Shown one piece after another: positions 3,676 to 52,600 of a stretch of 52,600 nucleotides of DNA. The DNA comes from a virus (lineage: Duplodnaviria; Caudoviricetes). A program made the position numbers and the translations under genes. Every line of letters starts with the position of its first letter. Positions within the stretch are counted from its first letter, which is position 1. The stretch lies in the IMG/VR virus record IMGVR_UViG_3300026279_000223, positions 1 through 52,600 of that record; one strand, 5' to 3'. The notes beneath the pieces were generated by a model that was given only the letters and a program-made list of their open reading frames with translations, was not told the DNA's origin and made no database searches.

Positions 3676-5142
3676 TTAGTCTTGTTCTTTGTCAACCGGT
3701 TTTAGTCTTTTACTTAATACAAACGTTCTATTAGGGTTGACACTAACATTCATTTGTCTCATTAAATCTCTATTGATTAATAAATCTGATCCTGATCTTG
3801 GTCTATTATCTAATCCTACTTCTACATCTTTATAGGTAAAACCATTAAAGGTTAAATCTAATAAAATTGTAGGTCTAATTTCTGAAGGCTCATCATCTGC
3901 ATTTGCTCTGAAGATTTTACTTTCACCAAATTTAGGTTTCTCATAAGTTTTATTATTATATTTCCATTTAACAATTTTCTTATCTGATAAAATTTCATCG
4001 GCATGTAAAGCACATGCTTTTGATCCGTTACCACTATCAAACTTAGCTCTAACTTTATCTACATCTGAAACATCAACAGTTTCTAACCAACCACATTCTA
4101 TAAGTGATTGTCTATCCCAATGACTTCTATCTTGAATATAATCAACAAGATACTCCATCATTTTTTCTCCATCTATTCTACCAGATGGTTCTGGATCAGA
4201 ATAATAATCTTTGTATTGGTAACCTTGATAGTCAGCACCTGATCCTGGACTACCATTGATTTCTAAAATGTATGGTTTTTTATTGTTTACTATGTGATCA
4301 ACTCCTACCATATATGCTTTTGAAGCTCTTGAAGCTTTTAAAACTAATTCGTGTTCTTCGTCACTTAAAATATAAGGCATTGCCTCAGCGCCTCTATGTG
4401 TATTTGATCTAAAGTCATATGAGCTGTGTATTCTTTTTGTACTTGCAATAATTTTGTTATCTAATACAAAAGTTCTTACATCAAACTTAACGTCCATAAA
4501 TTCTTGTATTAATAGTTCAGCATTTAATTTCCACATAGCCTGTACAGTTGCAACAAGACCCTCATAACTTTCAATTTTAATTACTCCGATACCTTGTGTA
4601 CCTGTTAATGTCTTTAAGATAAGTGGAAACTTACCACCAATTTGATCTAAACCTGTTCTTATATTATTCTCGTTAGATATAAAAGCAGTTCTAGGTGTAG
4701 GTATACCATTCTTTTCAAATAGTAAAGCTGATGTTAATTTATTGTCACAAGTCAGCATAGCTGCTCTTGTGTTTAACATAAATGATTGTGAATTTTGAAA
4801 GGCAGATATTAAAGAAAGGCCAGCTTCATCTTGACAAGCACCACCTCTTGTTATAACAACAGTATCTTTACCAACAAACTCATGCTCACCATTTTTACCG
4901 TCATAATTATAGACAGTTAATGTATTTTTTTCTTCGTCTTTACCTGTGATGATTGTACTATTGGTGTTTACTATAACACATTTAGTCTTTTGTTTTTTAC
5001 ACGCCTTTTCTATAAGTTCAACAGTTGAATCCTTGTTAGGTTTATCTGAATCATTTATAGTAAGTATCGCAACCGTAATAGGTTTATCTTTACGGCCTGG
5101 ATTCTGTTCGGTTATGTAATCTCTAAACTTTGGTATCTGCAT
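3676..5142 (-). CDS. rimK: RimK-family ATP-grasp ligase fused to a C-terminal RimB/retropepsin-like protease domain
   Basis: GTQGIGV, IQEF, FRSNTHRG, GVD, LEINGSPG ATP-grasp motifs; C-terminal CGWLE...AKFDSG...LLINRD. Confidence 0.88.
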   Translation of the reverse strand: MQIPKFRDYITEQNPGRKDKPITVAILTINDSDKPNKDSTVELIEKACKKQKTKCVIVNTNSTIITGKDEEKNTLTVYNYDGKNGEHEFVGKDTVVITRGGACQDEAGLSLISAFQNSQSFMLNTRAAMLTCDNKLTSALLFEKNGIPTPRTAFISNENNIRTGLDQIGGKFPLILKTLTGTQGIGVIKIESYEGLVATVQAMWKLNAELLIQEFMDVKFDVRTFVLDNKIIASTKRIHSSYDFRSNTHRGAEAMPYILSDEEHELVLKASRASKAYMVGVDHIVNNKKPYILEINGSPGSGADYQGYQYKDYYSDPEPSGRIDGEKMMEYLVDYIQDRSHWDRQSLIECGWLETVDVSDVDKVRAKFDSGNGSKACALHADEILSDKKIVKWKYNNKTYEKPKFGESKIFRANADDEPSEIRPTILLDLTFNGFTYKDVEVGLDNRPRSGSDLLINRDLMRQMNVSVNPNRTFVLSKRLKPVDKEQD

Positions 5143-5970: not shown

Positions 5971-6046
5971 TGGTGCCCTTTGTCCGAGTCGAACAGACGA
6001 CCTACTGATTACAAATCAGTTGCTCTACCAGCTGAGCTAAAAGGGC
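5971..6046 (-). tRNA. tRNA-Thr(UGU), canonical
   Basis: 76-nt cloverleaf: AGCTCAGCTGGTAGAGC D-arm, CTGAT-TTGTAA anticodon arm, GTTCGA T-loop, encoded CCA. Confidence 0.96.
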
Positions 6047-14729: not shown

Positions 14730-16061
14730 TTATCTTCCTACTTGATTTAGGTACTTTCCTTTGCAATCTTCCCAATTCAAGTAAATCAAATCATCATAAA
14801 AATGTGATTCTTTAGAATATCTGTCTGTCTGTAATAAATTCTTTATTCTTTTAGAGGCATGTTTTTCTTTCCACACTTTAACTAATGCCTCTGTAGACGA
14901 ATCAAAACGTTTCTTTAAACCATCGTTTTTAACTTCGCCTCTTAAATACTCATAAGTGTTCTCATATAATCTTGCAAAATAGATACCTCTGGCATGATCA
15001 GTTTTAATTAACTTTTTATCTATACCCATTTTAGAATAGGTAAACATATATGATCTATTCTTGTGGTCTCTTTTTAATGGTTGGCCGTTAGCTCTTGTTG
15101 CTTCATACCATTCAAAGTATTTTCTAGTATGATTTTTCTTTAACCATTGTTTAATTAAATTCTTTGTTTCTGGTTGTGGTTCATATGATACGGAACCCAT
15201 AGTGAAACCCATACGTTTCCAGTATTTTAAACCATCATATTGACTTAAAGTATTTGCTTTCGCTTTACCATATAAAGATGTTGTGGTAACACCAACTAAC
15301 TTGTCACCATATTTCTCTTCCCAAATTCTTTGTACGTCATCTGATAAACATAGATATGCTAATAGTTTACCACCAGTATAACTATAACCTAAAGGTTGTG
15401 TTGGTACAATAGAGGAACCAATAGCAGTATGATTAATCATACCACCAAACGTTTTACTATGTCTATCCCAACCAATGGCACTGTCTCTTGGAGTTAAATC
15501 CATAAAGTCACCAGATATACAAATCACACCTAAATGTTTGCCTGATTTATTATCATTTACATTAAAGAATAACTGTCTACCAATATTACTATTGTTTTTC
15601 ATGGTAGACAAAAATGTTCTTAATGTGTTCCAGTTTTCAGATAGTTGTTGAGTTCTTACTGCTTTGCCGTTAAATCTTTTTGTAGTATCATCTGTATATT
15701 CTAATACAGGTTCCAGTTTATCATAGTCTTCAGGTGATTCTGGAATCCAGATATTATTTCTAACAGTATCTATTTGATTTTTTTGTGTAGGTTCTTTTAG
15801 TATATTTTCTGTACCATAGAGAGTAGTTGATTCTACTGTAGGATATTTTCTATGTACTTCTTGCCACTTTTGAAATAATGTATACTCTTGTACGGTCATT
15901 TTAGACACGTATCCAAGGTCTTTTTCTATAGCTTCTTTTAATACTTTCTCATCAACATCTTCTATTTTAGAGATATCGTTTTCATCTTGAAATTGTTTCC
16001 ACTTCTTTTCAACACCCTCTAAATCTTGTTTAGCGTGTATGTCAAAGTCATCTTTAGTCAT
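14730..16061 (-). CDS. DUF4338/Druantia DruA-like protein
   Basis: LTPRDSAIGW, PLGYSYTGGKLLAYL, VTTTSLYGK...SQYDGL, GFTMGS resemble DruA-family motifs as recalled. Confidence 0.7.
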   Translation of the reverse strand: MTKDDFDIHAKQDLEGVEKKWKQFQDENDISKIEDVDEKVLKEAIEKDLGYVSKMTVQEYTLFQKWQEVHRKYPTVESTTLYGTENILKEPTQKNQIDTVRNNIWIPESPEDYDKLEPVLEYTDDTTKRFNGKAVRTQQLSENWNTLRTFLSTMKNNSNIGRQLFFNVNDNKSGKHLGVICISGDFMDLTPRDSAIGWDRHSKTFGGMINHTAIGSSIVPTQPLGYSYTGGKLLAYLCLSDDVQRIWEEKYGDKLVGVTTTSLYGKAKANTLSQYDGLKYWKRMGFTMGSVSYEPQPETKNLIKQWLKKNHTRKYFEWYEATRANGQPLKRDHKNRSYMFTYSKMGIDKKLIKTDHARGIYFARLYENTYEYLRGEVKNDGLKKRFDSSTEALVKVWKEKHASKRIKNLLQTDRYSKESHFYDDLIYLNWEDCKGKYLNQVGR

Positions 16062-20411: not shown

Positions 20412-20486
20412 TGGAGCGGGTGAAGAATTTCGCAATCTCAACCTTATCGTTGGCAACGATACGCTCTACTTTTGAGCTACACCCGC
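20412..20486 (-). tRNA. tRNA-Gly(GCC) with non-canonical D- and T-loops
   Basis: GCGGGTG/CACCCGC acceptor stem, U73 + CCA, GCTC-AAAAGTA-GAGC D-arm, TATCG-TTGCCAA-CGATA anticodon arm, GAGAT-TGCGAAA-TTCTT T-arm. Confidence 0.85.
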
Positions 20487-40430: not shown

Positions 40431-41306
40431 TTAACTTGTTGTTCCGTACATAGTTTTTAATACGTTACCACTTGAATCTTTAATTTGTATATTTGTTGTG
40501 TTATTAACTGTACTTAAAGTTATGTCACCAGCTACATCTAAACTAGTACCATTAATCAACATCAATTTGTCTGATTTCCATCTTGCTGAAATATTATTAG
40601 CGCCGGCCTTCTTATGTGTGATTTCTATGATACCATCTTCATCACCATCGGTAGCGTCATCTATTTTAGCTGTAATTTTAGCATATATTACTTCTTGATC
40701 GGCGTCATTTTCGCCTTTGAATTTTATTTGTCCTAGATAATCTGCGTCATCAGGACTTGAGCTGTTTCTTTTTAATGTTATAACAGGACCAGCTGTACTT
40801 GAATCTTCCGTTGATGTTAATAATAATGAGTCATCTGAAATTGTATTATTAACAATCTCCATCATTCCAGCAGGAGCATTTGTACCAATACCAATTCTAC
40901 CAGTTGGTCTTACATTAAATTTTTCCGATCCACTTATAAAAACTCTTAAACTACCACCAGTATCAGCAGCATTTGGATCCAATTTTATTTGAAAATCAGC
41001 AGCTGCACCACACAAATCAGTTATTAAATCTGAACCATCGGTATCGTTTATTCTAATTTTAGGTATAGCAGCTTTAACTTCTAAAGTTGTTGATGGACTT
41101 GTTTGATTAATACCTACTCTATTGTTTGTTGTATCTATAGTCAAAGGCGCAACAATACCTGTTGAACCAGTATAACCTTGTGAACCTGTAAAACCACCTG
41201 TTAATGGTTGTAAAGCCCATGCGTCCCCATTCCATTTCCATGTACGTACACCTAGATTGTAGGTATCATTGAGCGATGGACCACTCGGAAAATTTATCGT
41301 TGGCAT
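40431..41306 (-). CDS. Fibre-like virion protein
   Basis: INFPSGP...WKWNG N-terminal module, short GXY stretch, NRVGINQTSP and GRIGIGTNAP fibre repeats. Confidence 0.75.
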   Translation of the reverse strand: MPTINFPSGPSLNDTYNLGVRTWKWNGDAWALQPLTGGFTGSQGYTGSTGIVAPLTIDTTNNRVGINQTSPSTTLEVKAAIPKIRINDTDGSDLITDLCGAAADFQIKLDPNAADTGGSLRVFISGSEKFNVRPTGRIGIGTNAPAGMMEIVNNTISDDSLLLTSTEDSSTAGPVITLKRNSSSPDDADYLGQIKFKGENDADQEVIYAKITAKIDDATDGDEDGIIEITHKKAGANNISARWKSDKLMLINGTSLDVAGDITLSTVNNTTNIQIKDSSGNVLKTMYGTTS

Positions 41307-41341
41307 ATTATAATTCTATCCTTTTAAGTTTCTCTTCCACA

Positions 41342-41358
41342 TATTTATAATATTTATA
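41342..41358 (-). promoter_or_regulatory. Tandem T4 late promoters
   Basis: TATAAATA at 41342-41349 and 41351-41358. Confidence 0.75.
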
Positions 41359-41385
41359 CTGACTTTAGGATAGCTATTTTCCAAT

Positions 41386-41418
41386 AAAAAACCCCCGAAG
41401 CCGAAGCGCCGGGGGTTT
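41386..41418 (-). terminator. Intrinsic terminator
   Basis: AAACCCCCG...GC-TTCG-GC...CGGGGGTTTTTT. Confidence 0.88.
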
Positions 41419-41446
41419 AATTTTACCTGTTTATTACTAGTGATTA

Positions 41447-42376
41447 TTAAGCTTTAACAATCTTTAGAGTGTGAGTTGCAGCTGTCGTTACCGAACCTGC
41501 TGGAAACTCTTGTGCTCTGTAATCATCACCAACTTGTCTAGTTTGGTAATTAGTGCCATCAAGTATAGTGTTAGCCATACCTGAGCCTCTAGTTGTACCA
41601 GAACCATTAAAGTTATATCTAATAGTATATCCGTCACTTGAAGCACTTGCAGTCTGTCTGATCCACTCTTGACACAAAGTATCAAAAGAAGCACCAGTTT
41701 GTTGTAAGTGATTTGATCCGTCTATATTTAATAGATTATCGTATGATGAAGTAGCGCCGTCTACTCTGTGTAGATAGTAGCTAGTAATCGTAGTTGGGTT
41801 ATCTTGTGCATGGTCACCGATTGATCCAGCAGCCCAAGCGCCAGTGTTGGCACGTGTGTCTACAAAGATCGGAGTTGATGAACCACTAACTTCAGTAGCA
41901 CCACTTTCAGACGCATTAGAAGATACAAAATATGTACCACCTTGTTGCGTTGTAGTTGTACTTGCTGTAAGTAAATCAATTGCTGGATGTAAGAACGTAT
42001 CCTTAATGTCAGCAATAGGCATTGCCTGGACTTCACCACCACTTGTGTAGTAAACTGGCCATGTCGTGCCTGTATCAGATGTCGGCGAAACCGAAGCAAC
42101 TGATTGAGTTACTTTATCATAGTTTGTTGTAACCGTTTGTGGGTCTTGCGTAGTACCTTGACCAGGAAAAGAAGAGGAACTATTAGAAATAGAACCTGCT
42201 TGTAATCTTGTATCAGATATAGCGCCAAGTGATCCACCTGATCCTACAACTGTTAATGTAACAGACGGCGATTGAGAATATTGATAAACAATATTATCAA
42301 CAACTGCGTCTATCTGAGCTGAAGTCATTTCCACTAAATTACCCGAACTGTATACTAAAGGGTTTCGTGTAGCCAT
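41447..42376 (-). CDS. Ser/Thr-rich putative virion structural protein
   Basis: 309 aa, AGGAG SD, last gene of a late operon. Confidence 0.75.
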   Translation of the reverse strand: MATRNPLVYSSGNLVEMTSAQIDAVVDNIVYQYSQSPSVTLTVVGSGGSLGAISDTRLQAGSISNSSSSFPGQGTTQDPQTVTTNYDKVTQSVASVSPTSDTGTTWPVYYTSGGEVQAMPIADIKDTFLHPAIDLLTASTTTTQQGGTYFVSSNASESGATEVSGSSTPIFVDTRANTGAWAAGSIGDHAQDNPTTITSYYLHRVDGATSSYDNLLNIDGSNHLQQTGASFDTLCQEWIRQTASASSDGYTIRYNFNGSGTTRGSGMANTILDGTNYQTRQVGDDYRAQEFPAGSVTTAATHTLKIVKA

Positions 42377-42407
42377 TATATTTTTCTCCTTTTTATTGCT
42401 CTACTTC

Positions 42408-43304
42408 TTACGAAGCGTTACCTATGATTGTTTTTAATGTAGTACCACCACTGTTTTTAATCAGTAATGTAACCGCTGAACTGAAATTACTTGAATCAAT
42501 TGTGTCAACTTGAGCACCTTTTGATCCTGTAAATCCAACAACACCTTGGTTTGATAATTCAACCCACTGTACACTATTACCATCGTTGTAGTAAAAGTAT
42601 TGTACGCCAGTTGCGTTGTCTACCCAAATGTCTCCTTCTCCTACGCCAGATGTTGGCGGTGAAGCAGCTGTTGTAATATCAAGATTACCTTCAGATCCAG
42701 TGTAACCAATGTCACCTTTTGATCCTGTGTAACCAATGTCCCCTTTAGAACCTGTGAAACCTTTTGATCCAGTGTAACCAATGTCACCTTTTGATCCAGT
42801 GTAACCAATGTCCCCTTTAGAACCTGTGAACCCTTTAGAACCAGTGAAACCAATGTCTCCTTTTGATCCTGTGAATCCAATATCACCTTTTGAACCAGTG
42901 AAACCAACATCCCCTTTAGAACCAGTGAAACCAATTGTACCAGAAAGGTCAGATACGAATGAGTATGCTGAACCGTTCCATAGGTATAATCTAGAGTTTT
43001 CTGCGTCTGTTAGAGAGCCGTTTTCAATGATAGCAAATTCACCTGTAGCTATGCCACTTGGTGATGTATCTGCTGATAAGTTAGCGACACTAGTATAAGT
43101 CTTCGCAATGTTGAAGCCTAAACCAGTAGCACCTTTAGAACCTGTATACCCGATATCACCTTTAGAACCAGTATAACCGATTGATCCAGTGAAACCTGCT
43201 GTAAGAGGCTGTAGCGCCCAACCATTACCGTTCCATTTCCACTGACGTGTGCCTAGTGTGTATAGATCGTTTAATGAGGGCGACGATGGAAAGTTTATTG
43301 CCAT
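42408..43304 (-). CDS. Collagen-like fibre protein
   Basis: Repeated G[FY]T-GSK-GD[IV] triplets; modules shared with neighbouring fibre genes. Confidence 0.85.
   Translation of the reverse strand: MAINFPSSPSLNDLYTLGTRQWKWNGNGWALQPLTAGFTGSIGYTGSKGDIGYTGSKGATGLGFNIAKTYTSVANLSADTSPSGIATGEFAIIENGSLTDAENSRLYLWNGSAYSFVSDLSGTIGFTGSKGDVGFTGSKGDIGFTGSKGDIGFTGSKGFTGSKGDIGYTGSKGDIGYTGSKGFTGSKGDIGYTGSKGDIGYTGSEGNLDITTAASPPTSGVGEGDIWVDNATGVQYFYYNDGNSVQWVELSNQGVVGFTGSKGAQVDTIDSSNFSSAVTLLIKNSGGTTLKTIIGNAS
42694..42837. repeat. 72-bp near-perfect tandem duplication inside 27/18-bp collagen-coding repeats
   Basis: 42694-42765 versus 42766-42837, about 3 mismatches. Confidence 0.85.
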
Positions 43305-43400
43305 TTTATTTGTCTCCTAATTTATTGTTTTTTTTAATTAAAAAATTCAATATCCCTACATAATTTAATCTTGCAAGAAAATTTTAACGTTTTCTGCTTC

Positions 43401-43408
43401 TATTTATA
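43401..43408 (-). promoter_or_regulatory. T4 late promoter
   Basis: TATAAATA upstream of ORF 42408..43304. Confidence 0.75.
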
Positions 43409-43457
43409 ATATATAAACACTACAAAACACTTTGTTTTCTAGTATTTTTCAATTTTA

Positions 43458-45086
43458 TTAAGCGCCAATGGTACCACCGTTTAGGCACCACCCTTGACCA
43501 TCCCATATACAAGAGAAAGTATTGGCAAAAACGCCACCAGTTGTATCTAATCTCCAGTTATGTGATGTCCTTAATTCTGTTGCACCAGTACCAATTATAA
43601 CAACTTTTGCATTAGCGACAGTAATGTCACTATAAGTTGATGTTGTTATGCCTGATTTATAGAACAATAACTCTTGTCCTATATAAGTGCCGTCTGCAAG
43701 TGTATAGTTTATACCTGCTGTAATAAAGTGATTACGTTTTGTTATATCTAAAGCACCTGTGTTATCTTTAGTTTCGTATTCACTTGTTGTTATATGAGAG
43801 CCTGCTATTGTTAGTTTATCATTTGTAAGTCCGATACTTACTTCATTTGCTCCCATTTTTAAACTGTTATCGCTTAAGAATAAGTGTCTAACTTTTCTAT
43901 CAGCACTACCTATGTCATATGTTTCATGTGCTACAGGTAATAAATGTCCACTGTTTGTAATATCCCAACGATCCGTTCCTTCCGTTCTAAATGTGACTTC
44001 GCCATCTGTACCTGTGTCTGCTACTGATACTGAACTATTGCCGGCAGTTATAGAACTTCCACCTGAACCAGCAGAACCAGTAAAACCAACTGTACCAGTT
44101 GAGCCTGTAAATCCTACTATACCACTATTTGCTAATTCTACCCATTGATTACTATTGCCGTCATTCATGTAGAAGTATTGAATACCTGTTGCGTCATCAA
44201 TCCAAACGTCACCAATACCTGCTGAACCTGGAGGTGTTGAAGCAACTGCTACATCTAAATTTCCTTCCGAACCTGTATAACCAATTATACCTTGATCGCC
44301 TTTTGATCCTGAATAACCAATTGATCCTGTATATCCTAAATCTCCTTTTGATCCAACATATCCAACGGCGCCAGCTGTACCTGCTGTACCTTTTGATCCT
44401 GTGAAACCTACACTACCAATATCTCCTTTTGATCCTGAATAACCTATAGGTCCTTCGCCACCATCTGAACCTTTTGATCCTGTGAAACCTACACTACCAA
44501 TATCTCCTTTTGATCCTGTAAAACCAACTGTACCGGCAGCTCCACTATCTCCTTTTGATCCTGTATAACCTAAATCTCCTTTTGATCCTGAATAACCTAT
44601 AGCACCATCGTCACCAATTGATCCTGTATAACCTTTATCTCCTTGGTCACCTTTTGATCCTGAATATCCTACATCGCCTTTTGATCCTGAATAACCAATA
44701 GCACCTACTGATCCTGTAAAACCAATGGCACCTGCTGAACCAGTATAACCTGCTCCACCACCTGAACTGAATAATGACCAATTAGCCTCAGCATTAGGAA
44801 CTGCACCTGTAATATTACTTCTTACTTCACTACCTTGAAGTTTGTAAGTATAATATTTGTCACCTGTTCTTGTATATGAACCAGCAGTATATGTGTTCTT
44901 AACATATACTAACATACCCTCCTGGATTCTTGCACCTGGAATATCTGTTAATCTATCGCTGGCGTCACCAGAAATACTTTGAAGTGTACCTCTAACTTCC
45001 GTATCTAAAACGATAGGCGAGTTAGTGCCGGTACTCCATGTACCTGGCCAGACGTTTCGGGTTAAACCATCGTAGTTGCTAGCCAT
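43458..45086 (-). CDS. Collagen-like fibre protein with globular ends
   Basis: About 160-aa GXY region built on G[FY][ST]GSKGD; GHLLP...TYDIGS...RHLFLS fibre motif. Confidence 0.85.
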   Translation of the reverse strand: MASNYDGLTRNVWPGTWSTGTNSPIVLDTEVRGTLQSISGDASDRLTDIPGARIQEGMLVYVKNTYTAGSYTRTGDKYYTYKLQGSEVRSNITGAVPNAEANWSLFSSGGGAGYTGSAGAIGFTGSVGAIGYSGSKGDVGYSGSKGDQGDKGYTGSIGDDGAIGYSGSKGDLGYTGSKGDSGAAGTVGFTGSKGDIGSVGFTGSKGSDGGEGPIGYSGSKGDIGSVGFTGSKGTAGTAGAVGYVGSKGDLGYTGSIGYSGSKGDQGIIGYTGSEGNLDVAVASTPPGSAGIGDVWIDDATGIQYFYMNDGNSNQWVELANSGIVGFTGSTGTVGFTGSAGSGGSSITAGNSSVSVADTGTDGEVTFRTEGTDRWDITNSGHLLPVAHETYDIGSADRKVRHLFLSDNSLKMGANEVSIGLTNDKLTIAGSHITTSEYETKDNTGALDITKRNHFITAGINYTLADGTYIGQELLFYKSGITTSTYSDITVANAKVVIIGTGATELRTSHNWRLDTTGGVFANTFSCIWDGQGWCLNGGTIGA

Positions 45087-45087
45087 A

Positions 45088-47082
45088 TTATGCTCCTATC
45101 TCCACGTAAGTTGTTCCCGGTTGTAAAGTTATTCCATACATATGGTAACTCTCTCCTGTTTGTCCTGATAATGGTGAATCAGGTACTAGTGTAATTGTTC
45201 CACCATCTGTTGTACCAACATCACTTAATAATCCTGCACTTGCACCTGTTTTAAATGTACCAGGTTGAGACGCTGAATTTCTAACACAAAACCAAAATGC
45301 TCTAGGGTTGGAATCTGTATTGTTAACTGCTTGTACTGAAAATGTTCTTGTTTGATTTGCCAACTCATTTACTGCTGATTCAAAACCTGTAGATTCAGAA
45401 TCATCAATTATATCAGTAAGAGTTGGAGTTGTTCCAACTCCTGTTGTCCAGATCCAGAAAGACGGATATGTAAATGAGGCAGATACGTTGCTTGTTGTTG
45501 ACGACTGATCTGTCGTATATGAGGTGCCTGTTACATCAACAGGTCTTGTGAACGTACACGTATTTGAGATTGTACGAGTATCGCCTGTATTGTCTTTATG
45601 TATAGGTGATGTAAATGTAAATGTCCCACTCACATAACCGCTTCCTGAATTTGTACTCAAAGTACCACCACTTGCTGTTAAAGCATGTGAAGTGTTACTT
45701 GAATTTGATATACCACTTACGTTAGTTGAGTACGATGTACTAGCATAAGATTTTAAAAATGTTTTACCACTAACATTTGATTTAGATAAACTCATTGACG
45801 CTGTTGACCAGTTTACACTGAACGATGTATCAGAAGCTGTGTATTCTGATTCACTGCCGTCATTATGATTAAATTTAACTGTTGCACCAGCCGAACCTCC
45901 AGTACGACTAGTTGATATTGGTCTAATATATGAGTTTGAATTGTCAACAGTGAAAGTTTGATTCCAATCTACACCACCTGCTGGTGTTTGTGATTTACTT
46001 CCTGCTGAATAATTTGTTAAAGTACCGTTAACACTTCCACTTGTTTGAGTGATAGAGTAAACTGAACTTATAAAGTCTGATGTAACGTCACTAGGGTTAT
46101 CTACTGATACAGAAAATCCTGTTGCTGGTACGTCCCAATTATTTGAACTTGATGGATTTGCTGAAGCTGAAAATGAAGGAGTAAAAGTTGCTAAAGTTAA
46201 TCTTAAAAGATCACCTGAAAATTCTGCTGTTCTAATTGTAGAAGTTGTACCACCATCTGTATATCCTGTAAGTGTTCTATAATCTCCTGAAGTTGTGAAT
46301 ACTAATGGAGAACCTGAACCTGATCCTGCTGATCCTGTAAAACCAACTGCACCAACTGAACCTGTAAATCCTGCTCCTGTAGAACCAGTAAAACCAACAG
46401 CGCCATCGGCACCATCAGCGCCTGCAGCTCCGTCAGAACCTTTTGATCCTGTATAACCTAAATCTCCTTTTGATCCAACATATCCAACTGCACCTTGTGA
46501 GCCTGCATAACCACCACCTGGTCCTTGTTCACCACGTGATCCTGTAAAACCTGCTCCAGTTGATCCTGTAAAACCAACGGCGCCGGCTGTACCTGCGTCA
46601 CCTTTTGATCCTGAATATCCAATTGCACCGGCAGCTCCATCAGCACCATCTGATCCATCGGCACCGGCAACTCCTCTTGATCCTGTAAAACCAACTGCAC
46701 CGGCAGCTCCACTATCTCCTTTTGATCCTGTGTATCCTGCTCCTGTTGATCCTGTAAAACCAACTGAGCCGTCTGATCCATCAGCACCTGCTGATCCTGT
46801 GTATCCTGTTCCTACTGATCCAGTAAAACCTACTGTACCTTGATCACCTACTGATCCAGTGAAACCTGCTACACCTTGAGCACCAACTGATCCTGTATAA
46901 CCACCACCTGGTCCTTGAGCACCAACTGATCCTGTGAAACCTTGTGAGCCTGAATAACCACCTGGTGATCCAGCAGCCCCTTGTTCCCCTTTAGAACCTG
47001 TGTATCCTGAAGTACCAGCCGATCCTGTATATCCTCTGGTACCTAAACCTACACGGACTCCGGCATTCTTAATTACTGGCAT
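45088..47082 (-). CDS. Collagen-like fibre protein with Ser/Thr-rich beta C-terminal region
   Basis: About 240-aa GXY region (GFTGS, GYTGS, GAD, GSD) followed by a S/T-rich domain. Confidence 0.85.
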   Translation of the reverse strand: MPVIKNAGVRVGLGTRGYTGSAGTSGYTGSKGEQGAAGSPGGYSGSQGFTGSVGAQGPGGGYTGSVGAQGVAGFTGSVGDQGTVGFTGSVGTGYTGSAGADGSDGSVGFTGSTGAGYTGSKGDSGAAGAVGFTGSRGVAGADGSDGADGAAGAIGYSGSKGDAGTAGAVGFTGSTGAGFTGSRGEQGPGGGYAGSQGAVGYVGSKGDLGYTGSKGSDGAAGADGADGAVGFTGSTGAGFTGSVGAVGFTGSAGSGSGSPLVFTTSGDYRTLTGYTDGGTTSTIRTAEFSGDLLRLTLATFTPSFSASANPSSSNNWDVPATGFSVSVDNPSDVTSDFISSVYSITQTSGSVNGTLTNYSAGSKSQTPAGGVDWNQTFTVDNSNSYIRPISTSRTGGSAGATVKFNHNDGSESEYTASDTSFSVNWSTASMSLSKSNVSGKTFLKSYASTSYSTNVSGISNSSNTSHALTASGGTLSTNSGSGYVSGTFTFTSPIHKDNTGDTRTISNTCTFTRPVDVTGTSYTTDQSSTTSNVSASFTYPSFWIWTTGVGTTPTLTDIIDDSESTGFESAVNELANQTRTFSVQAVNNTDSNPRAFWFCVRNSASQPGTFKTGASAGLLSDVGTTDGGTITLVPDSPLSGQTGESYHMYGITLQPGTTYVEIGA

Positions 47083-47120
47083 AATGCGATATTATTCTCC
47101 CTCATATTAAAGTCCAAGCA

Positions 47121-47149
47121 TTGACTTTTTTTTCTTAATCTGTTATAGT
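47121..47149 (+). promoter_or_regulatory. Sigma70-type promoter for the glycosyltransferase pair
   Basis: TTGACT-N17-TATAGT with extended TG. Confidence 0.75.
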
Positions 47150-47150
47150 A

Positions 47151-47162
47151 TATTTATAAATA
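47151..47162. promoter_or_regulatory. Palindromic bidirectional T4 late promoter
   Basis: TATTTATAAATA reads TATAAATA on both strands (minus 47151-47158, plus 47155-47162). Confidence 0.75.
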
Positions 47163-47191
47163 ATCTGTAGTGAATTGAAGATATAAAATAA

Positions 47192-49234
47192 ATGATTTCT
47201 ATTGCATTTTTAGACATAATTGGTCTACCTTATGATGGAGACACTTTGAAGAAAAGAGGTCTTGGCGGATCCGAATCTGCGACTCTTTTAATGGCCAAAG
47301 AACTAACTAAACTAGGTTTTAATGTCACTATCTTTAATAACTGTAATCGTGATCCTTCTCTTGCAACCGAAGGCACCTATGATGGTGTACGTTATATAGA
47401 TAATACTATTTTAGATTATAAACATGATTTTAAATTTGATATTGTTATTTCTTTAAGAACAATCATTCCTTTTCTACCACCTAATCTATACAAACAGTTT
47501 CAAGAATACAATCCTCAAAGATATTCAGCAATCAAAGCTAACGCAAAACACAAAGTAGTTTGGATGCACGATACATTTGCAAACGGCGATCTTGTGTTAG
47601 AAGACCTTTTAGTACAAGGTCACATAGATGAAGTATTTACTTTATCAGATTTCCATTCAACTTACGTAATGAATTGTGATCATGGTAAAAAAAGAAATAT
47701 GGAAGTATTAAAACATAGATTTTTTCAAACAAGAAATGGAATAGTAACCTATAAAGATGAAGTTGATATAAGAAGAAAAGACCCTTACTTATATGTCTTC
47801 AATGCAGCTTTCACAAAAGGTATGGCACCTTTAGTTAACGATATATGGCCAGAAATTAAAAAAAGAATACCTGAAGCTAAATTAATATGTATTGGAGGAT
47901 TTTATGTCTTCCCAGGAAAAAAGATGGATGCTCAAGGAGAAGAATGGACAAAAATGTCCCAAGATCCAAAGAATAAAAATTTAGGTATAGAATTTACAGG
48001 TGTTATAAAACAATCTGAAATAGCAGATATATTAGAAAGAGCAAGTTTTAAATTATTTCCAGGTGCCTTTCCTGAAACATTTGGTATATCATCTTTAGAG
48101 GCAATAGCATATAATACACCTATCATCGGTACACGTTTTGGTGCTTTAGAAGAAACAGCAGTTAGTGAAGCTTGTTATATGATAGACTATGCAATAGAAC
48201 CAAATTCCTTATTTCCATTTATTCCAAAAAAGAGACAAGTAGAAAAATTTGTACAAGCCACAATAGCAGCTCATCATAATAGATATTTACACCAACAAAA
48301 ACAATATGCTTGTAATCAAATTAAAGGTGTCGTTGGTTGGGATAGTGTAGCACTACAATGGAAACAACATTTATATAGAACATTAGGAGAATATTTACCA
48401 ATAGATGAATATAGAAAAGTATCTCATATCAATCATAGAGTTAAAAAAGTATTTGGTAGAAGATTTTCAAATATAGAAGATAGTTATTTACCTAGAAAAA
48501 AAGAACAAAGAATAGTTATAATATCTCCTACTTACAATTCTGAAGCATACATACAACAATGTATTAAATCAGTTGCGACACAAGATTATGATAATTACCA
48601 TATGATTGTAATTGATGACGCCTCTACAGATAAGACATATGAGAAAGCCTGTTCCTTTGTGGAAAATTTTAGAAGTGATTTAATAACAGTAATTAAAAAT
48701 GATGAAAATAAAGGAGCTGTTAGAAATCAAATAGAGTCTATAAGAAAATATTGTAAACCAGATGACATAGTTATGTTTTTAGACGGTGATGATTCTCTTA
48801 TAAATGATAATGAGATATTTCAATTTTATAATAATCTCTATGATGGCACTACAGAATTTACTTATGGGTCATGTTATTCAATGGTAGATAGAATACCTTT
48901 AATAGCACAAAACTATCCAGAGGAAATAAAACAAAAGAAAGAATACAGAAAATACAAATTCAATTGGAATATGCCATACACACATTTAAGAACATTTAAA
49001 GCAGGACTTTTAGATGGTCTTGATGATAGTAATTTCCAAGATGGAAGTGGAGAATGGTATAAAGCTGGTGGAGACGGTTCTATATTTTATTCTCTTATAG
49101 AACAAGCTGATCCAAAGAAAGTAAAAGTTGTATCAGATATAGTATATAATTATAATGATATAAATCCTCTTAATGATTATAAAATTAACAGTGAAGTACA
49201 AACAAAAAACGCAAATAGGATAATTAACCAATGA
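47192..49234 (+). CDS. Bifunctional glycosyltransferase (GT-B/GT4-like plus GT-A/GT2)
   Basis: GLGGSE, WMHD, PETFGISSLEAIA; then ISPTYN, IDDASTD, FLDGDD. Confidence 0.9.
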   Translation: MISIAFLDIIGLPYDGDTLKKRGLGGSESATLLMAKELTKLGFNVTIFNNCNRDPSLATEGTYDGVRYIDNTILDYKHDFKFDIVISLRTIIPFLPPNLYKQFQEYNPQRYSAIKANAKHKVVWMHDTFANGDLVLEDLLVQGHIDEVFTLSDFHSTYVMNCDHGKKRNMEVLKHRFFQTRNGIVTYKDEVDIRRKDPYLYVFNAAFTKGMAPLVNDIWPEIKKRIPEAKLICIGGFYVFPGKKMDAQGEEWTKMSQDPKNKNLGIEFTGVIKQSEIADILERASFKLFPGAFPETFGISSLEAIAYNTPIIGTRFGALEETAVSEACYMIDYAIEPNSLFPFIPKKRQVEKFVQATIAAHHNRYLHQQKQYACNQIKGVVGWDSVALQWKQHLYRTLGEYLPIDEYRKVSHINHRVKKVFGRRFSNIEDSYLPRKKEQRIVIISPTYNSEAYIQQCIKSVATQDYDNYHMIVIDDASTDKTYEKACSFVENFRSDLITVIKNDENKGAVRNQIESIRKYCKPDDIVMFLDGDDSLINDNEIFQFYNNLYDGTTEFTYGSCYSMVDRIPLIAQNYPEEIKQKKEYRKYKFNWNMPYTHLRTFKAGLLDGLDDSNFQDGSGEWYKAGGDGSIFYSLIEQADPKKVKVVSDIVYNYNDINPLNDYKINSEVQTKNANRIINQ

Positions 49235-50640
49235 AAAAAATATTAATAGCCATACCAACAAACAAGTACATAGAACCAGATACATATAAAGCAATATATG
49301 ATCTAATTATTCCAGAAGGATTTAAAGTAGAGTTTCAATTCTTTTATGGATATCAAATAGACCAAATAAGAAATCTAATAGCACATTGGGGAGAACATTA
49401 TGATTATTTGTTTTCTGTAGACAGTGATATATCTTTTGATAAAGATACATTATCTAAAATGCTTGGACATGATAAAGATATAGTTTCAGGTCTTTATATT
49501 CAAAGAATACCAGGAACTCACTCATTGGAAGTTTATGAACAAATACCAAATGGTGGCTCTAGACGTATTCCATGGGAAAAAATTAAAGATCATCCTTTAG
49601 TAGAGATAGTAGCTTGTGGTATGGGTTGTGCTCTTATTAAAAGTAAAGTATTAAAGGCAGTTGGTTATCCTTATTATACTTACCATTCGGCACTAGATCA
49701 TAATAATACATTATCCGAAGATGTTGATTTCTGTAGAAAAGCAAGAGGAAAAGGATTTAAAATTTGGGCTGATACTACAATACGTTGTAAACACACAGGT
49801 AACAGTACGTTTGAAGTAGGTCAAATAATGAAAAATCGTAATATTGAAGAAATCAGACAACAAGAAAGTGTTAATCGTGTAAATGATTTAGGTCACGATA
49901 CAGCAAAATATAAAACAGAGGTTGAAGGCAAAGGTGCCAAAGATACTAGATTTATTGATAAGACTGCAAAAGCAGTTAAGAGAGTTTATCCAGGTATTGA
50001 TCCTGAAACTGGAAAATATGCATTAGAAGTAAATGAAGGAGAGAAATTTACAGGTGATAGTGTAGAGTATACTTCATTAGCCGAAGCAGTACAAAGATTA
50101 AAACATCCTATTGGTGCTAGTGTAGAACTCGGCGTTAGATTAGGATTAGGTAGTAAAACAATTATAGACGCATACAGACATTACCACCCTAAAGTTAGAT
50201 TAAATCATTTAGGTATAGACCCATATGGTAATATTGATTATGCAGCTTCTGATAGTGTATTAGCAAGAAAGTTTAACTATGATAACTTAATGAGAAAGAC
50301 AACATTAATAAACTTTGCTGAAGATTATCCAGAGTTTCATTTAGTTAACTTTGAAGATTCAGAGTTTTTTAATAGATTTCACGATGGTTATCCTGTTTAT
50401 GAAGAACATAAACATATGATATCAAAATATGAACTTGTACACTATGACGGTCCACACGATACTAAAAGTGTTTTAAAAGAGGCCGTTTTCTTTAATCAAA
50501 GAAAAGCAGATCAAACAGTTTGGATATTTGATGATATTACAGGTTTAAGGTGGGATGCTTTAGCAGGATATATGAATAAATTCCAATTTCAACTTGTCAA
50601 TAAAGGTGAAAATAAAGCTGTATTTGAATATAACGCTTAA
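49231..50640 (+). CDS. GT-A/GT2-like glycosyltransferase fused to a SAM-dependent methyltransferase
   Basis: ILIAIPT, FSVDSDI, CGMGCALIK, SEDVDFC; then VELGVRLGLGS, GIDPY, VHYDGPH, IFDD. Confidence 0.87.
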   Translation: MKKILIAIPTNKYIEPDTYKAIYDLIIPEGFKVEFQFFYGYQIDQIRNLIAHWGEHYDYLFSVDSDISFDKDTLSKMLGHDKDIVSGLYIQRIPGTHSLEVYEQIPNGGSRRIPWEKIKDHPLVEIVACGMGCALIKSKVLKAVGYPYYTYHSALDHNNTLSEDVDFCRKARGKGFKIWADTTIRCKHTGNSTFEVGQIMKNRNIEEIRQQESVNRVNDLGHDTAKYKTEVEGKGAKDTRFIDKTAKAVKRVYPGIDPETGKYALEVNEGEKFTGDSVEYTSLAEAVQRLKHPIGASVELGVRLGLGSKTIIDAYRHYHPKVRLNHLGIDPYGNIDYAASDSVLARKFNYDNLMRKTTLINFAEDYPEFHLVNFEDSEFFNRFHDGYPVYEEHKHMISKYELVHYDGPHDTKSVLKEAVFFNQRKADQTVWIFDDITGLRWDALAGYMNKFQFQLVNKGENKAVFEYNA

Positions 50641-50978
50641 AAAGCTTTTACTACAGACGGAGTTACAATAGCAATACCCTCTAATAAACGAGTAACCGAA
50701 CTATCGGTATGAGTAGCAACAACGTCAAACACCCAACGTCCAGCTGTTAATGCTTTTGTTTGATCAGCAGTTAAACTTATAGTCACTATACCATCTGTTG
50801 GATTATTTGCAACACAAGAAAACACTACTCTAGGATATGTTGTTGAATATCCTTGTGCCATCTTAGCCACCATTGTATAACCAGTAAGATCAAAATCTGT
50901 ACCGTCAGAATTTGTGACTTCTAAATCGTATGTAAAATTAGACCCTTGGTCTATCGTTAAGTTTGCTATCCCTGCCAT
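50637..50978 (-). CDS. Conserved T4-like small virion protein (Ig/BppU-like)
   Basis: ANLTIDQG, FDLTGYT, GRWVFDV, TRLLEGIAIVTPSV; TATAAATA-N5-ATG. Confidence 0.8.
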   Translation of the reverse strand: MAGIANLTIDQGSNFTYDLEVTNSDGTDFDLTGYTMVAKMAQGYSTTYPRVVFSCVANNPTDGIVTISLTADQTKALTAGRWVFDVVATHTDSSVTRLLEGIAIVTPSVVKAF

Positions 50979-50983
50979 ACATC

Positions 50984-50991
50984 TATTTATA
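50984..50991 (-). promoter_or_regulatory. T4 late promoter
   Basis: TATAAATA 5 nt before ATG 50978. Confidence 0.8.
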
Positions 50992-51000
50992 TTCGGAAAG

Positions 51001-51029
51001 TTGCCATTTTGGATTAAATGTGATACTAT
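51001..51029 (+). promoter_or_regulatory. Sigma70-type promoter for the riboswitch-btuB transcript
   Basis: TTGCCA-N17-TACTAT with extended TG, 8 nt before riboswitch P1. Confidence 0.8.
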
Positions 51030-51037
51030 ATAATAAT

Positions 51038-51139
51038 GGCCTAAAAGCGTAGTGGGAAAGTGACGTGGAATTCGTTCAGATTACTTGATACGGTTATACT
51101 CCGAATGCCACCTAGGTCATATAACGAGCAAGGAGACTC
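51038..51139 (+). ncRNA. Cobalamin riboswitch, class IIa (AdoCbl-variant, env8HyCbl-like)
   Basis: GGCCTA/TAGGTC closing stem, AGTGGGAAAG, GCCAC B12-box, loop TTATACTCC complementary to the SD hairpin GAGCAAGGAGACTC just before the ATG. Confidence 0.93.
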
Positions 51140-51140
51140 A

Positions 51141-52600
51141 ATGATAAGATTAATTCTTATGTTAATCTTGGTGTGGGCTAATGTTGCCTATTCCAAGGAT
51201 AGTGATTGTAATTGGAATGATGAGATTCCTTGTATTACAATATATCCAAATATAAACAATTCAAACGCATTAGGTGATAAGATAACACCTACACATACAA
51301 TTAAAAAATCTGAAATTGAAAAGTATAATCTAATTGATTTACCTAAAGTATTAAATTATGTTCAAGGCCTAGATATAACTCAATCAGGTTCTACAGGTCA
51401 ACAATCATCTTTATTTTTAAGAGGCACAAACTCTAATCACACATTAGTATTATTAAATGGAATACCAATCAATGATTACTCTACACCTACAGGTGCCCAT
51501 GATGTTGGTCAAGACTTTATGTTCAATGTTGTACAAATAGATGTATACAAAGGGTCACAAGGTGCTCATTGGGGAGCAGACGCTGTTGGTGGTGCAATTA
51601 ATTTTAGAACAACGGTAGATTATGATAAAAGATTAAGTTTATCAGGTAATGGTAATGATAAAACTATTAGTGGTAATTATTATACTAGATTAAATGACTT
51701 TGATATATCTGTTTCAGCAGGTGAGCATAAATCACAAAACGTTTCTGCTTTATCAGGTGCTGACGAAAAAGATGGAACAAATAATAAAACAATAGGTGTT
51801 AATGTAAGTAAATGGTATGATCTTGTACATTGGCGAACAACTTGGTTTGCAAGAAACACTTTTACTGATATAGATGGCCATAATGTTTCTATACAAGATG
51901 GTAAATGGGCAGATAATACTTTCTTTGCCTTTCAAACTGGTGTTGATTATTTAAATAACAGTTTAACTTTTCATACACACGAATATGATAGAGACTATGA
52001 CGACTCTCATTATGAAAGTGAAAACTATACTATAAGAGGTACACATCAAAAAGAAAAATATGGATTTGGTTTTGATTACAAACATAATGAATCATTAACA
52101 AGTCAACATCATAATTTAGGATACTTCTTTAATTTTTCACATAATATATTTTCATATCATCATAGGTTTGATGAAGAACACGAAACATATAAATTAGGTT
52201 TCTTTAAAGAACTAGAAGATGGTTTAAGTATAAGTGGTAGTACATCAACAAGTTATAAAGATAAAACAACATGGACTGCTATTGAATATGGAGAATCACA
52301 AGAGCTAACATTAACTAAAAACAATTTCTCAACAACCATATTTCAAAATGATATTGGCGATTTAAATACAGATGGTATAGAGTTAAGTTATGGTGAAAAA
52401 GATTTTAAAGTTTTTGCAAGTCATTTAAACAGTAAGAAAAATGATAGTATACAATTAAGAAGACCTAATTGGAGTTTTGGTTTAATGCATAACTATGACT
52501 TTAAAAACAATTGGTCTTTAACTACAAACTATAAGTGGAAAGATAAACATTTAGATGTACACAACTCTAATTGGTCAACCATATCAATGCCAGAAACTCA
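51141..52600 (+). CDS. btuB: BtuB-like TonB-dependent outer-membrane receptor, 3'-truncated; not in ORF track
   Basis: 486 open codons by my translation; signal peptide MIRLILMLILVWANVAYS; plug motifs GQQSSLFLRGTNSNHTLVLLNGIPIND and IDVYKGSQGAHWGADAVGGAINF; later LRRP. Confidence 0.9.
   Translation, partial: MIRLILMLILVWANVAYSKDSDCNWNDEIPCITIYPNINNSNALGDKITPTHTIKKSEIEKYNLIDLPKVLNYVQGLDITQSGSTGQQSSLFLRGTNSNHTLVLLNGIPINDYSTPTGAHDVGQDFMFNVVQIDVYKGSQGAHWGADAVGGAINFRTTVDYDKRLSLSGNGNDKTISGNYYTRLNDFDISVSAGEHKSQNVSALSGADEKDGTNNKTIGVNVSKWYDLVHWRTTWFARNTFTDIDGHNVSIQDGKWADNTFFAFQTGVDYLNNSLTFHTHEYDRDYDDSHYESENYTIRGTHQKEKYGFGFDYKHNESLTSQHHNLGYFFNFSHNIFSYHHRFDEEHETYKLGFFKELEDGLSISGSTSTSYKDKTTWTAIEYGESQELTLTKNNFSTTIFQNDIGDLNTDGIELSYGEKDFKVFASHLNSKKNDSIQLRRPNWSFGLMHNYDFKNNWSLTTNYKWKDKHLDVHNSNWSTISMPET

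Follow-up and report, generated by a model that had tools for sequence, protein, structure and literature searches.

A candidate vitamin B12 import cassette with an env8-type riboswitch and a BtuB-like receptor in a T4-like marine phage

Introduction

The env8 RNA is the crystallographers' model B12 riboswitch and is also in use as the Riboglow imaging tag. In the parts consulted of PMC2864571, where the taxon of the motif is listed as "Marine", and of PMC7367189, its source is given as marine metagenome only; the parental sequence, env8Cbl-IIa, is provided with its accession in Supplementary Tables S1 and S3 of PMC6158498. Escherichia coli BtuB (PDB 1NQH, 2GSK; TIGR01779) combines a plug with a 22-strand barrel, and a cobalamin switch lies upstream of its gene. 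Herein, we analyze a stretch of 52,600 nucleotides (nt) of viral DNA (IMG/VR record IMGVR_UViG_3300026279_000223, positions 1 to 52,600; hereafter, the window), at the end of which an env8-type switch stands before a gene for a BtuB-like receptor. A prediction made earlier from the sequence alone (hereafter, the original prediction) had taken this arrangement for a phage-borne module of B12 sensing and uptake.

Riboswitches were not found in pelagimyophages according to the consulted parts of PMC7029224, and those of PMC9004378 describe only glutamine switches in such phages, the pairing of a cobalamin switch with btuB being noted for the OM43 host alone. Like the switch of the window, the glutamine riboswitches reported for Melnitz, Mosig and a cyanophage (PMC9004378) belong to T4-like phages that infect streamlined marine bacteria, but their ligand is different. 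SAR11 bacteria are B12-auxotrophic, and the regulation of SAR11 btuB is described as unknown (PMC9296465). In the full-text literature searched, with most subscription papers, including Johnson 2012, outside its scope, no report was found of a cobalamin switch or a BtuB in a phage, or of env8 originating from a virus; the parts consulted of PMC12379486, PMC9301287, PMC13294212 and the supplementary files of PMC12688817 held nothing bearing on the module. The new points are the assembly of known parts in a lytic phage and the very probable viral origin of env8, the parts themselves being of known kinds.

Results

The riboswitch and its kinship with env8

The aptamer (Table 1) matched the whole of Rfam model RF01689 (AdoCbl-II; AdoCbl, adenosylcobalamin; model positions 1-81) with 69.6 bits, well above the gathering score of 36.5 (E 2.8e-15), and has the full four-way junction core, which bears out the complete class IIa cobalamin riboswitch of the original prediction. 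Class IIa is defined by a bulged J1/3, the absence of the P2 arm and a small P6 loop (PMC7367189). In the window switch, J1/3 and L6 are 7 nt each, and J1/3 and J6/3 are the same as in wild-type env8 (Table S1, PMC6158498). The loop of P13 carries the Shine-Dalgarno sequence (SD) AGGAG at 51131-51135, ahead of the receptor ATG at 51141. CUUG in L5 (51084-51087) has its complement in CAAG at 51129-51132, and the env8 kissing-loop nucleotides G96, A97, G98, A99 and U45 (PMC5028336) are all retained; the L5-L13 kissing loop may thus form and mask the SD, as had been predicted. Plain minimum free energy folding did not distinguish the window RNA from background (z -0.08), which is expected because a cobalamin switch is held by tertiary contacts. 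In P1, three pairs were changed on both sides among 7 switch variants, a small and related set.

The window shares 98/102 nt with env8HyCbl/env8Cbl-IIa (AACY021350931.1; PDB 4FRG, 4FRN; PMC6158498, PMC5028336), the comparison being made via the published construct sequence. Phage locus L016 is, by eye, the parental env8Cbl-IIa sequence except for the construct's lengthened linker (Supplementary Table S3, PMC6158498), and the window differs from it at 4/102 nt, in agreement with the about four differences from env8 given in the original prediction. All four are conservative: three lie in the aptamer, at 51068 (a variable position of L4), 51076 (P4) and 51117 (P1), the latter two being G-C to G-U wobbles, and the fourth is a linker base, 51122. 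J1/3, J6/3, L5, L13 and the SD are identical, and both linkers are 7 nt long, while the SD-to-ATG spacing is 2 nt shorter in the window. The 102 nt of L016 recur unchanged in five loci, some possibly of the same virus: L016 and L021 from phages and L338, L345 and L347 from metagenomes. L345 also agrees with the published construct over the 10 nt that precede the switch and the 6 nt that follow it. For env8, repression of about 8.5-fold by hydroxocobalamin and a preference for small beta-axial ligands were reported (PMC5028336). Since this tested RNA differs at only four conservative positions, the window switch is predicted to prefer methyl- and hydroxocobalamin over AdoCbl and to repress translation.

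An env8-type switch stands ahead of the receptor in 26/44 viral loci. A pattern scan, which was built from the window sequence and finds close env8 types only, returned 27 viral loci and 20 loci in unfiltered metagenome contigs; 19 of the latter 20 have genes of these phages upstream, while the remaining one offers only 112 nt upstream and has receptor and enzyme downstream. RF01689 switches also occur in 31/151 genomes of Pelagibacteraceae (SAR11). However, the host switches (23 parsed of 29 fetched) agree with the env8 type at only 41-53/81 aptamer positions, and their expression platform is longer. Such a distribution, with all 20 metagenome loci among phage genes and SAR11 switches far more distant, makes it very probable that env8 is an RNA of phages. 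The suggestion that this model riboswitch family is phage-borne therefore stands for the env8 subtype but not for RF01689 as a whole, of which SAR11 genomes carry members of their own.

Regulation of the viral receptor by a riboswitch is optional. Out of 74 viral receptor loci, 28 have a switch, 26 being env8-type (one on a giant-phage fragment, L321) and two host-like. The sigma70-type promoter in front of the module (-35 at 51001-51006, -10 at 51024-51029, TG extension) is, as a single match, at chance level (5 sites found vs 3.1+/-1.7 expected). However, its position is kept in relatives, a match preceding 34/43 distinct receptor starts (two, at 200 nt, are doubtful) and reaching perfect consensus in L321 and L303, which upholds the promoter as first proposed. 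Many switch-less copies retain it with the ATG 5-10 nt past the -10 box and are predicted to give leaderless mRNAs; nearly the same promoter is common to L026, with the switch, and L028/L291, where the switch is absent.

Two further RNA arrangements were observed. Three viral contigs (L004:983-1048, also L005 and L006) have an extra 60-nt structured element between promoter and switch, a long hairpin with a loop that could form a pseudoknot by pairing with 7 nt immediately 3' of it (fold z -2.2). This element has no Rfam match, recurs in RNA run X16, where it is a loose end, and is possibly a tandem regulatory RNA or a ribozyme. Another phage group (L018:9829-9907, L040) has a receptor of 83-85% identity behind a cobalamin switch that is host-like, its expression platform being long; this group carries thyX, clpX and the gene for ribosomal protein S21, with csgF/G in relatives L039 and L040.

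The BtuB-like receptor

The receptor gene is completed to 535 amino acids (aa) in contig L002, which is 99.99% identical to the window over 11.4 kb (41175-52600). The protein has a signal-like N-terminus, a plug (PF07715), a C-terminal Phe and an invariant C-x-W...P-C motif at the expected place of the TonB box. Its best NCBIfam matches were two BtuB models (TIGR01779/NF007926), far below their cut-offs (93.5 vs 599.7 and 87.7 vs 836 bits), and we therefore file it as BtuB-like. In the predicted structure (predicted local distance difference test score, 73.9), 22 barrel strands with short loops were counted, so that plug, 22-strand barrel and terminal aromatic residue would all be as in BtuB; the N-terminal segment at the place of the TonB box is modeled with low confidence. 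E. coli BtuB supplied the top 12 Foldseek and the top 11 VIA-align matches of this model, and is the best match by both sequence profile and structure, in agreement with the secreted TonB-dependent receptor with a BtuB-type plug that had been proposed. Unlike E. coli BtuB, with which it shares about 20% identity, the viral receptor is compact, has the cysteine-pair motif instead of a plain TonB box, is phage-encoded and belongs with likely hosts in which TonB was not detected.

Among cellular proteins, the searches gave no relative with more than 34% identity over the full length. The viral receptors form a deep clade of their own, down to 42% identity, with intact frames. At 535 aa, the receptor completed in L002 is about 85 aa shorter than its SAR11 relatives, which have about 620 aa. 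Another BtuB-like family of viral receptors (about 590 aa, with another N-terminus) fills the slot beside the same radical S-adenosylmethionine (SAM) gene in L194, L197-L199, L206, L207, L221, L222, L224, L236 and L121, the last being a phage-type contig filed in a Flavobacteriaceae metagenome-assembled genome.

The phage, its likely host and contig continuity

The window is a fragment, about 29% complete, of a T4-like marine myophage genome, and protein family searches recovered the polymerase, clamp loader, capsid, portal, sheath and terminase of the T4-type set. The major capsid protein is 86.9% identical to that of Pelagibacter phage Mosig (runner-up, OM43 phage Melnitz, 74.6%) and the terminase 79.0% (Melnitz, 66.4%), placing the phage among the T4-like pelagimyophages of the Mosig group. 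Because these two markers are nearest to Mosig and the nearest cellular receptors come from SAR11, SAR11 bacteria are the likely host. The core genes, a phage late gene back-to-back with the module and the continuous phage contigs of relatives confirm the phage origin of the module. Mosig has a similar island at the same site from which the receptor and the B12-type enzyme are absent; the module is therefore optional.

The original prediction had named a chimeric contig, or entry into host DNA, as what would overturn it, and we consider such an artefact very improbable: window and L001 both end at 52600, and L331 may itself be a mosaic assembly, but this end is exactly the first single-nucleotide polymorphism (SNP) between two downstream phage haplotypes, the late gene/receptor junction is spanned by L002, by one contig of run X9 (49600-51989, zero differences; X9 and a possible source sample share a study) and by overlapping contigs of X11, and cellular relatives are distant. 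The window, which stops at this SNP, could continue as either haplotype; upstream, L002 is its closest match (99.99% vs 99.75%). In one haplotype (L002, L330, L332), the sequence continues into a convergent radical SAM gene. Haplotype B (L331, like L003, L337 and L340) continues into small unrelated phage genes; no more than the final codons of the enzyme gene are left, while switch and receptor are kept at 97.7% identity. In these contigs (L003:4565-6365, L337, L340, L331), the cassette lies in another phage context, after primase and class Ia nrdA, and in the L003-type context, it is bounded by the late-promoter motif and the radical SAM gene's last codons.

A candidate customer for B12

The convergent gene, outside the window, encodes 451 aa in L002, with a CxxxCxxC motif and an N-terminal Rossmann-type domain. 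Its best family matches are B12-binding radical SAM models. The radical SAM domain (PF04055) was found in 10/10 members of this enzyme family, and the cobalamin-binding domain PF02310 matched weakly, below cut-off, in 7/10, with no match in the copy of L002. Cobalamin-dependent radical SAM enzymes (MgmA, 9CCB; TsrM; OxsB; TokK; CysS) have the same combination of Rossmann-type domain and CxxxCxxC barrel; the phage enzyme, in contrast, has a trimmed N-terminal domain and less than 20% identity to them. The modeled fold, which covers the N-terminal domain, resembles MgmA, TsrM and OxsB, and equally AprD4.

A B12-type radical SAM gene lies within 8 kb at 48 of the 74 viral receptor loci; 11 others end less than 250 nt from the receptor match, and 15 have no enzyme nearby. 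Conversely, a receptor is nearby at 41/78 enzyme loci. The partner enzymes vary by lineage, and further radical SAM, aminotransferase and carbamoyltransferase genes lie beyond the enzyme. A profile search of the window proteins themselves gave no B12-binding domain. The original prediction had the module feed a B12-dependent enzyme, with NrdJ and MetH among those to be sought. NrdJ was rejected, the ribonucleotide reductase beside the cassette in a related phage being of class Ia. Given the 48/74 pairing and the same coupling in SAR11 genomes (see below), the idea of an enzyme to be fed is retained, and the adjacent cobalamin-type radical SAM enzyme, rather than NrdJ or MetH, is the likely customer.

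SAR11 cassettes and the energy source

The receptor was found in 32/151 SAR11 genomes, 29 of which also carry the switch, and a B12-binding domain above cut-off in 28/32 genomes with the receptor vs 18/119 without. These genomes are incomplete and related to each other, and the tallies include an unpublished one (G065) that is positive for TolQ, not for switch, receptor or B12 domain. Judging by L045-L056 and the 151 genomes, about a fifth carry a cassette of switch, receptor and DUF6580 membrane gene, tied to B12 radical SAM genes and mostly placed among glycosylation genes or near rRNA genes. In a quick tree, the SAR11 receptors are the sister clade to the viral ones. The C-x-W motif, switch class and neighbor enzyme type are the same, whereas identity is 29-34%, and the DUF6580-type gene, present at 11/12 host loci, is missing beside the viral receptor.

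A TonB partner did not materialize in the likely host group: the TonB C-terminus (TIGR01352) scored over cut-off in 0/151 SAR11 genomes, with three controls positive, and the single weak match was a gene between tolR and tolB. MotA_ExbB was present in 138/151, nearly always as a single copy. Since TonB is undetected and TolQRA is the only candidate motor seen, TolQRA would be the likely motor of host and phage receptors alike.

Flanking and other genes of the window

The late-gene protein is 50% identical to the "putative tail fiber protein" of Mosig and has matches in 110 phage records; its homolog matches PHROG 1084/3304. The late-promoter motif before it, of the T4 type named in PMC9004378, is kept in most close relatives. 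The two genes on the far side of the late gene form the edge of the same variable island and are listed as context, with no claim that they belong to the module.

Table 1. Features of the module and its flank (window coordinates)
Feature	Position	Strand	Remarks
Two glycosyltransferase/methyltransferase-type genes	47192..50640	+	GT1+GT2 and Methyltransf_24 matches
Phage late gene, 113 aa, tail-fibre assembly-type protein	50637..50978	-	Back-to-back with module
T4-type late promoter TATAAATA	50984..50991	-	5 nt before ATG of late gene 50637-50978
Sigma70-type promoter, extended -10	51001..51029	+	Predicted early expression by host RNA polymerase
Class IIa (env8-type) cobalamin riboswitch aptamer, P1-P6	51038..51118	+	Rfam RF01689
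7-nt linker J1/13 and P13 hairpin	51119..51139	+	P13 = 51126-51139; loop bears SD
Compact BtuB-like TonB-dependent-type receptor	51141..52600	+	First 486/535 aa in window

Elsewhere, a run of tail-fibre genes with collagen-like G-x-x repeats and raised GC content, variable in length among relatives, occupies 40431-47082 (-). A 443-aa open reading frame at 14730-16061 (-), in the replication region, matches the Druantia DruA domain below full length (E 3e-16). The gene at 3676-5142 (-) scores above the family cut-off as a RimK-family ATP-grasp ligase and has a weak retropepsin-like match at the C-terminus of its product, and two tRNA genes lie at 5974-6046 and 20415-20486 (-), with anticodons UGU-region and GCC, respectively, by alignment.

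Discussion

Taken together, it seems fairly probable that the cassette of env8-type switch and BtuB-like receptor imports B12 during infection, under feedback control, on behalf of the phage radical SAM enzyme. In such a scenario, the cassette would be transcribed early by the host sigma70 polymerase. As long as methyl- or hydroxocobalamin is absent, the SD in L13 would be free and the receptor made; bound cobalamin would lock the L5-L13 kissing loop and block translation, as in env8. The receptor would then sit in the outer membrane as a plugged 22-strand barrel and take up cobalamin, with energy possibly coming from the host TolQ-TolR-TolA motor. This is the weakest step, the explanation covering transport across the outer membrane. 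In near-identical phages, the radical SAM gene lies tail-to-tail with the receptor gene; its enzyme would be loaded with the cofactor and might add a methyl group to, or make another change in, a sugar-like compound produced by the aminotransferase, carbamoyltransferase and glycosyltransferases of the island, destined for the virion or the cell surface. The full proposition, in which env8 is viral and SAR11 myophages run their own feedback-controlled B12 import for phage B12 radical SAM chemistry via a Tol-powered miniature BtuB, is one we hold only tentatively, as rather less than an even bet.

Alternatively, B12 could be imported mainly for host enzymes, such as B12 radical SAM enzymes of surface glycans or others, which would make the cassette a classical auxiliary metabolic gene and the phage enzyme incidental. 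The 18/119 SAR11 genomes with B12-binding proteins over cut-off and no detected receptor, the 15 viral loci with no enzyme nearby and the loss of the enzyme from haplotype B are what one would expect under this alternative. However, the receptor is repeatedly paired with different viral B12-type enzymes, the second receptor family has been swapped into the same slot, the record rated 100% complete has two B12-type enzymes flanking the receptor, and receptors missing from incomplete host genomes are possibly gaps. We regard this alternative as the most serious one, yet unlikely.

Next in rank, and unlikely too, is a receptor that acts mainly as a surface modifier, decoy, superinfection-exclusion factor or TonB-independent pore, its B12 control being a leftover from a host ancestor. 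The shortened protein, its location in the host-recognition region, which is reported to be hypervariable in these phages (PMC7029224), the frequent loss of the switch, predicted to leave a constitutive leaderless gene, and the missing TonB speak for it. Nevertheless, plug and barrel are complete and conserved, two cobalamin switch types precede the viral gene (env8-type at 26/74 loci, host-like at 2/74), and SAR11's own receptors equally lack TonB, so that this gap is not phage-specific.

Even less probable is a nearly neutral cassette that has moved recently and spreads among phage genomes by hitchhiking. Near-identical cassettes do occur in two unrelated gene contexts, with the crossover within the enzyme gene's last codons, and cultured Mosig lacks the cassette despite an otherwise similar island; the depth of the viral receptor clade, with frames intact, and the compensatory changes in P1 argue against near-neutrality.

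With its very probable viral origin, env8 gains a biological home, as a phage riboswitch for which structures, kinetics and reporter data have already been measured. The phages apparently supply enzymes of their own with an imported vitamin, and no such importer was detected in about four fifths of the host-group genomes searched. A transport question arises as to how a BtuB-type receptor operates in cells where TonB is undetected. As nearly the same promoter occurs in nature both with the switch and without it, what regulation brings to a lytic phage could be compared directly. Growth in some ocean regions is B12-limited (PMC9296465); infected SAR11 cells could therefore be a B12 sink that has gone uncounted and, if our scenario is true, the viruses of the ocean's most abundant bacteria would be direct competitors for dissolved B12.
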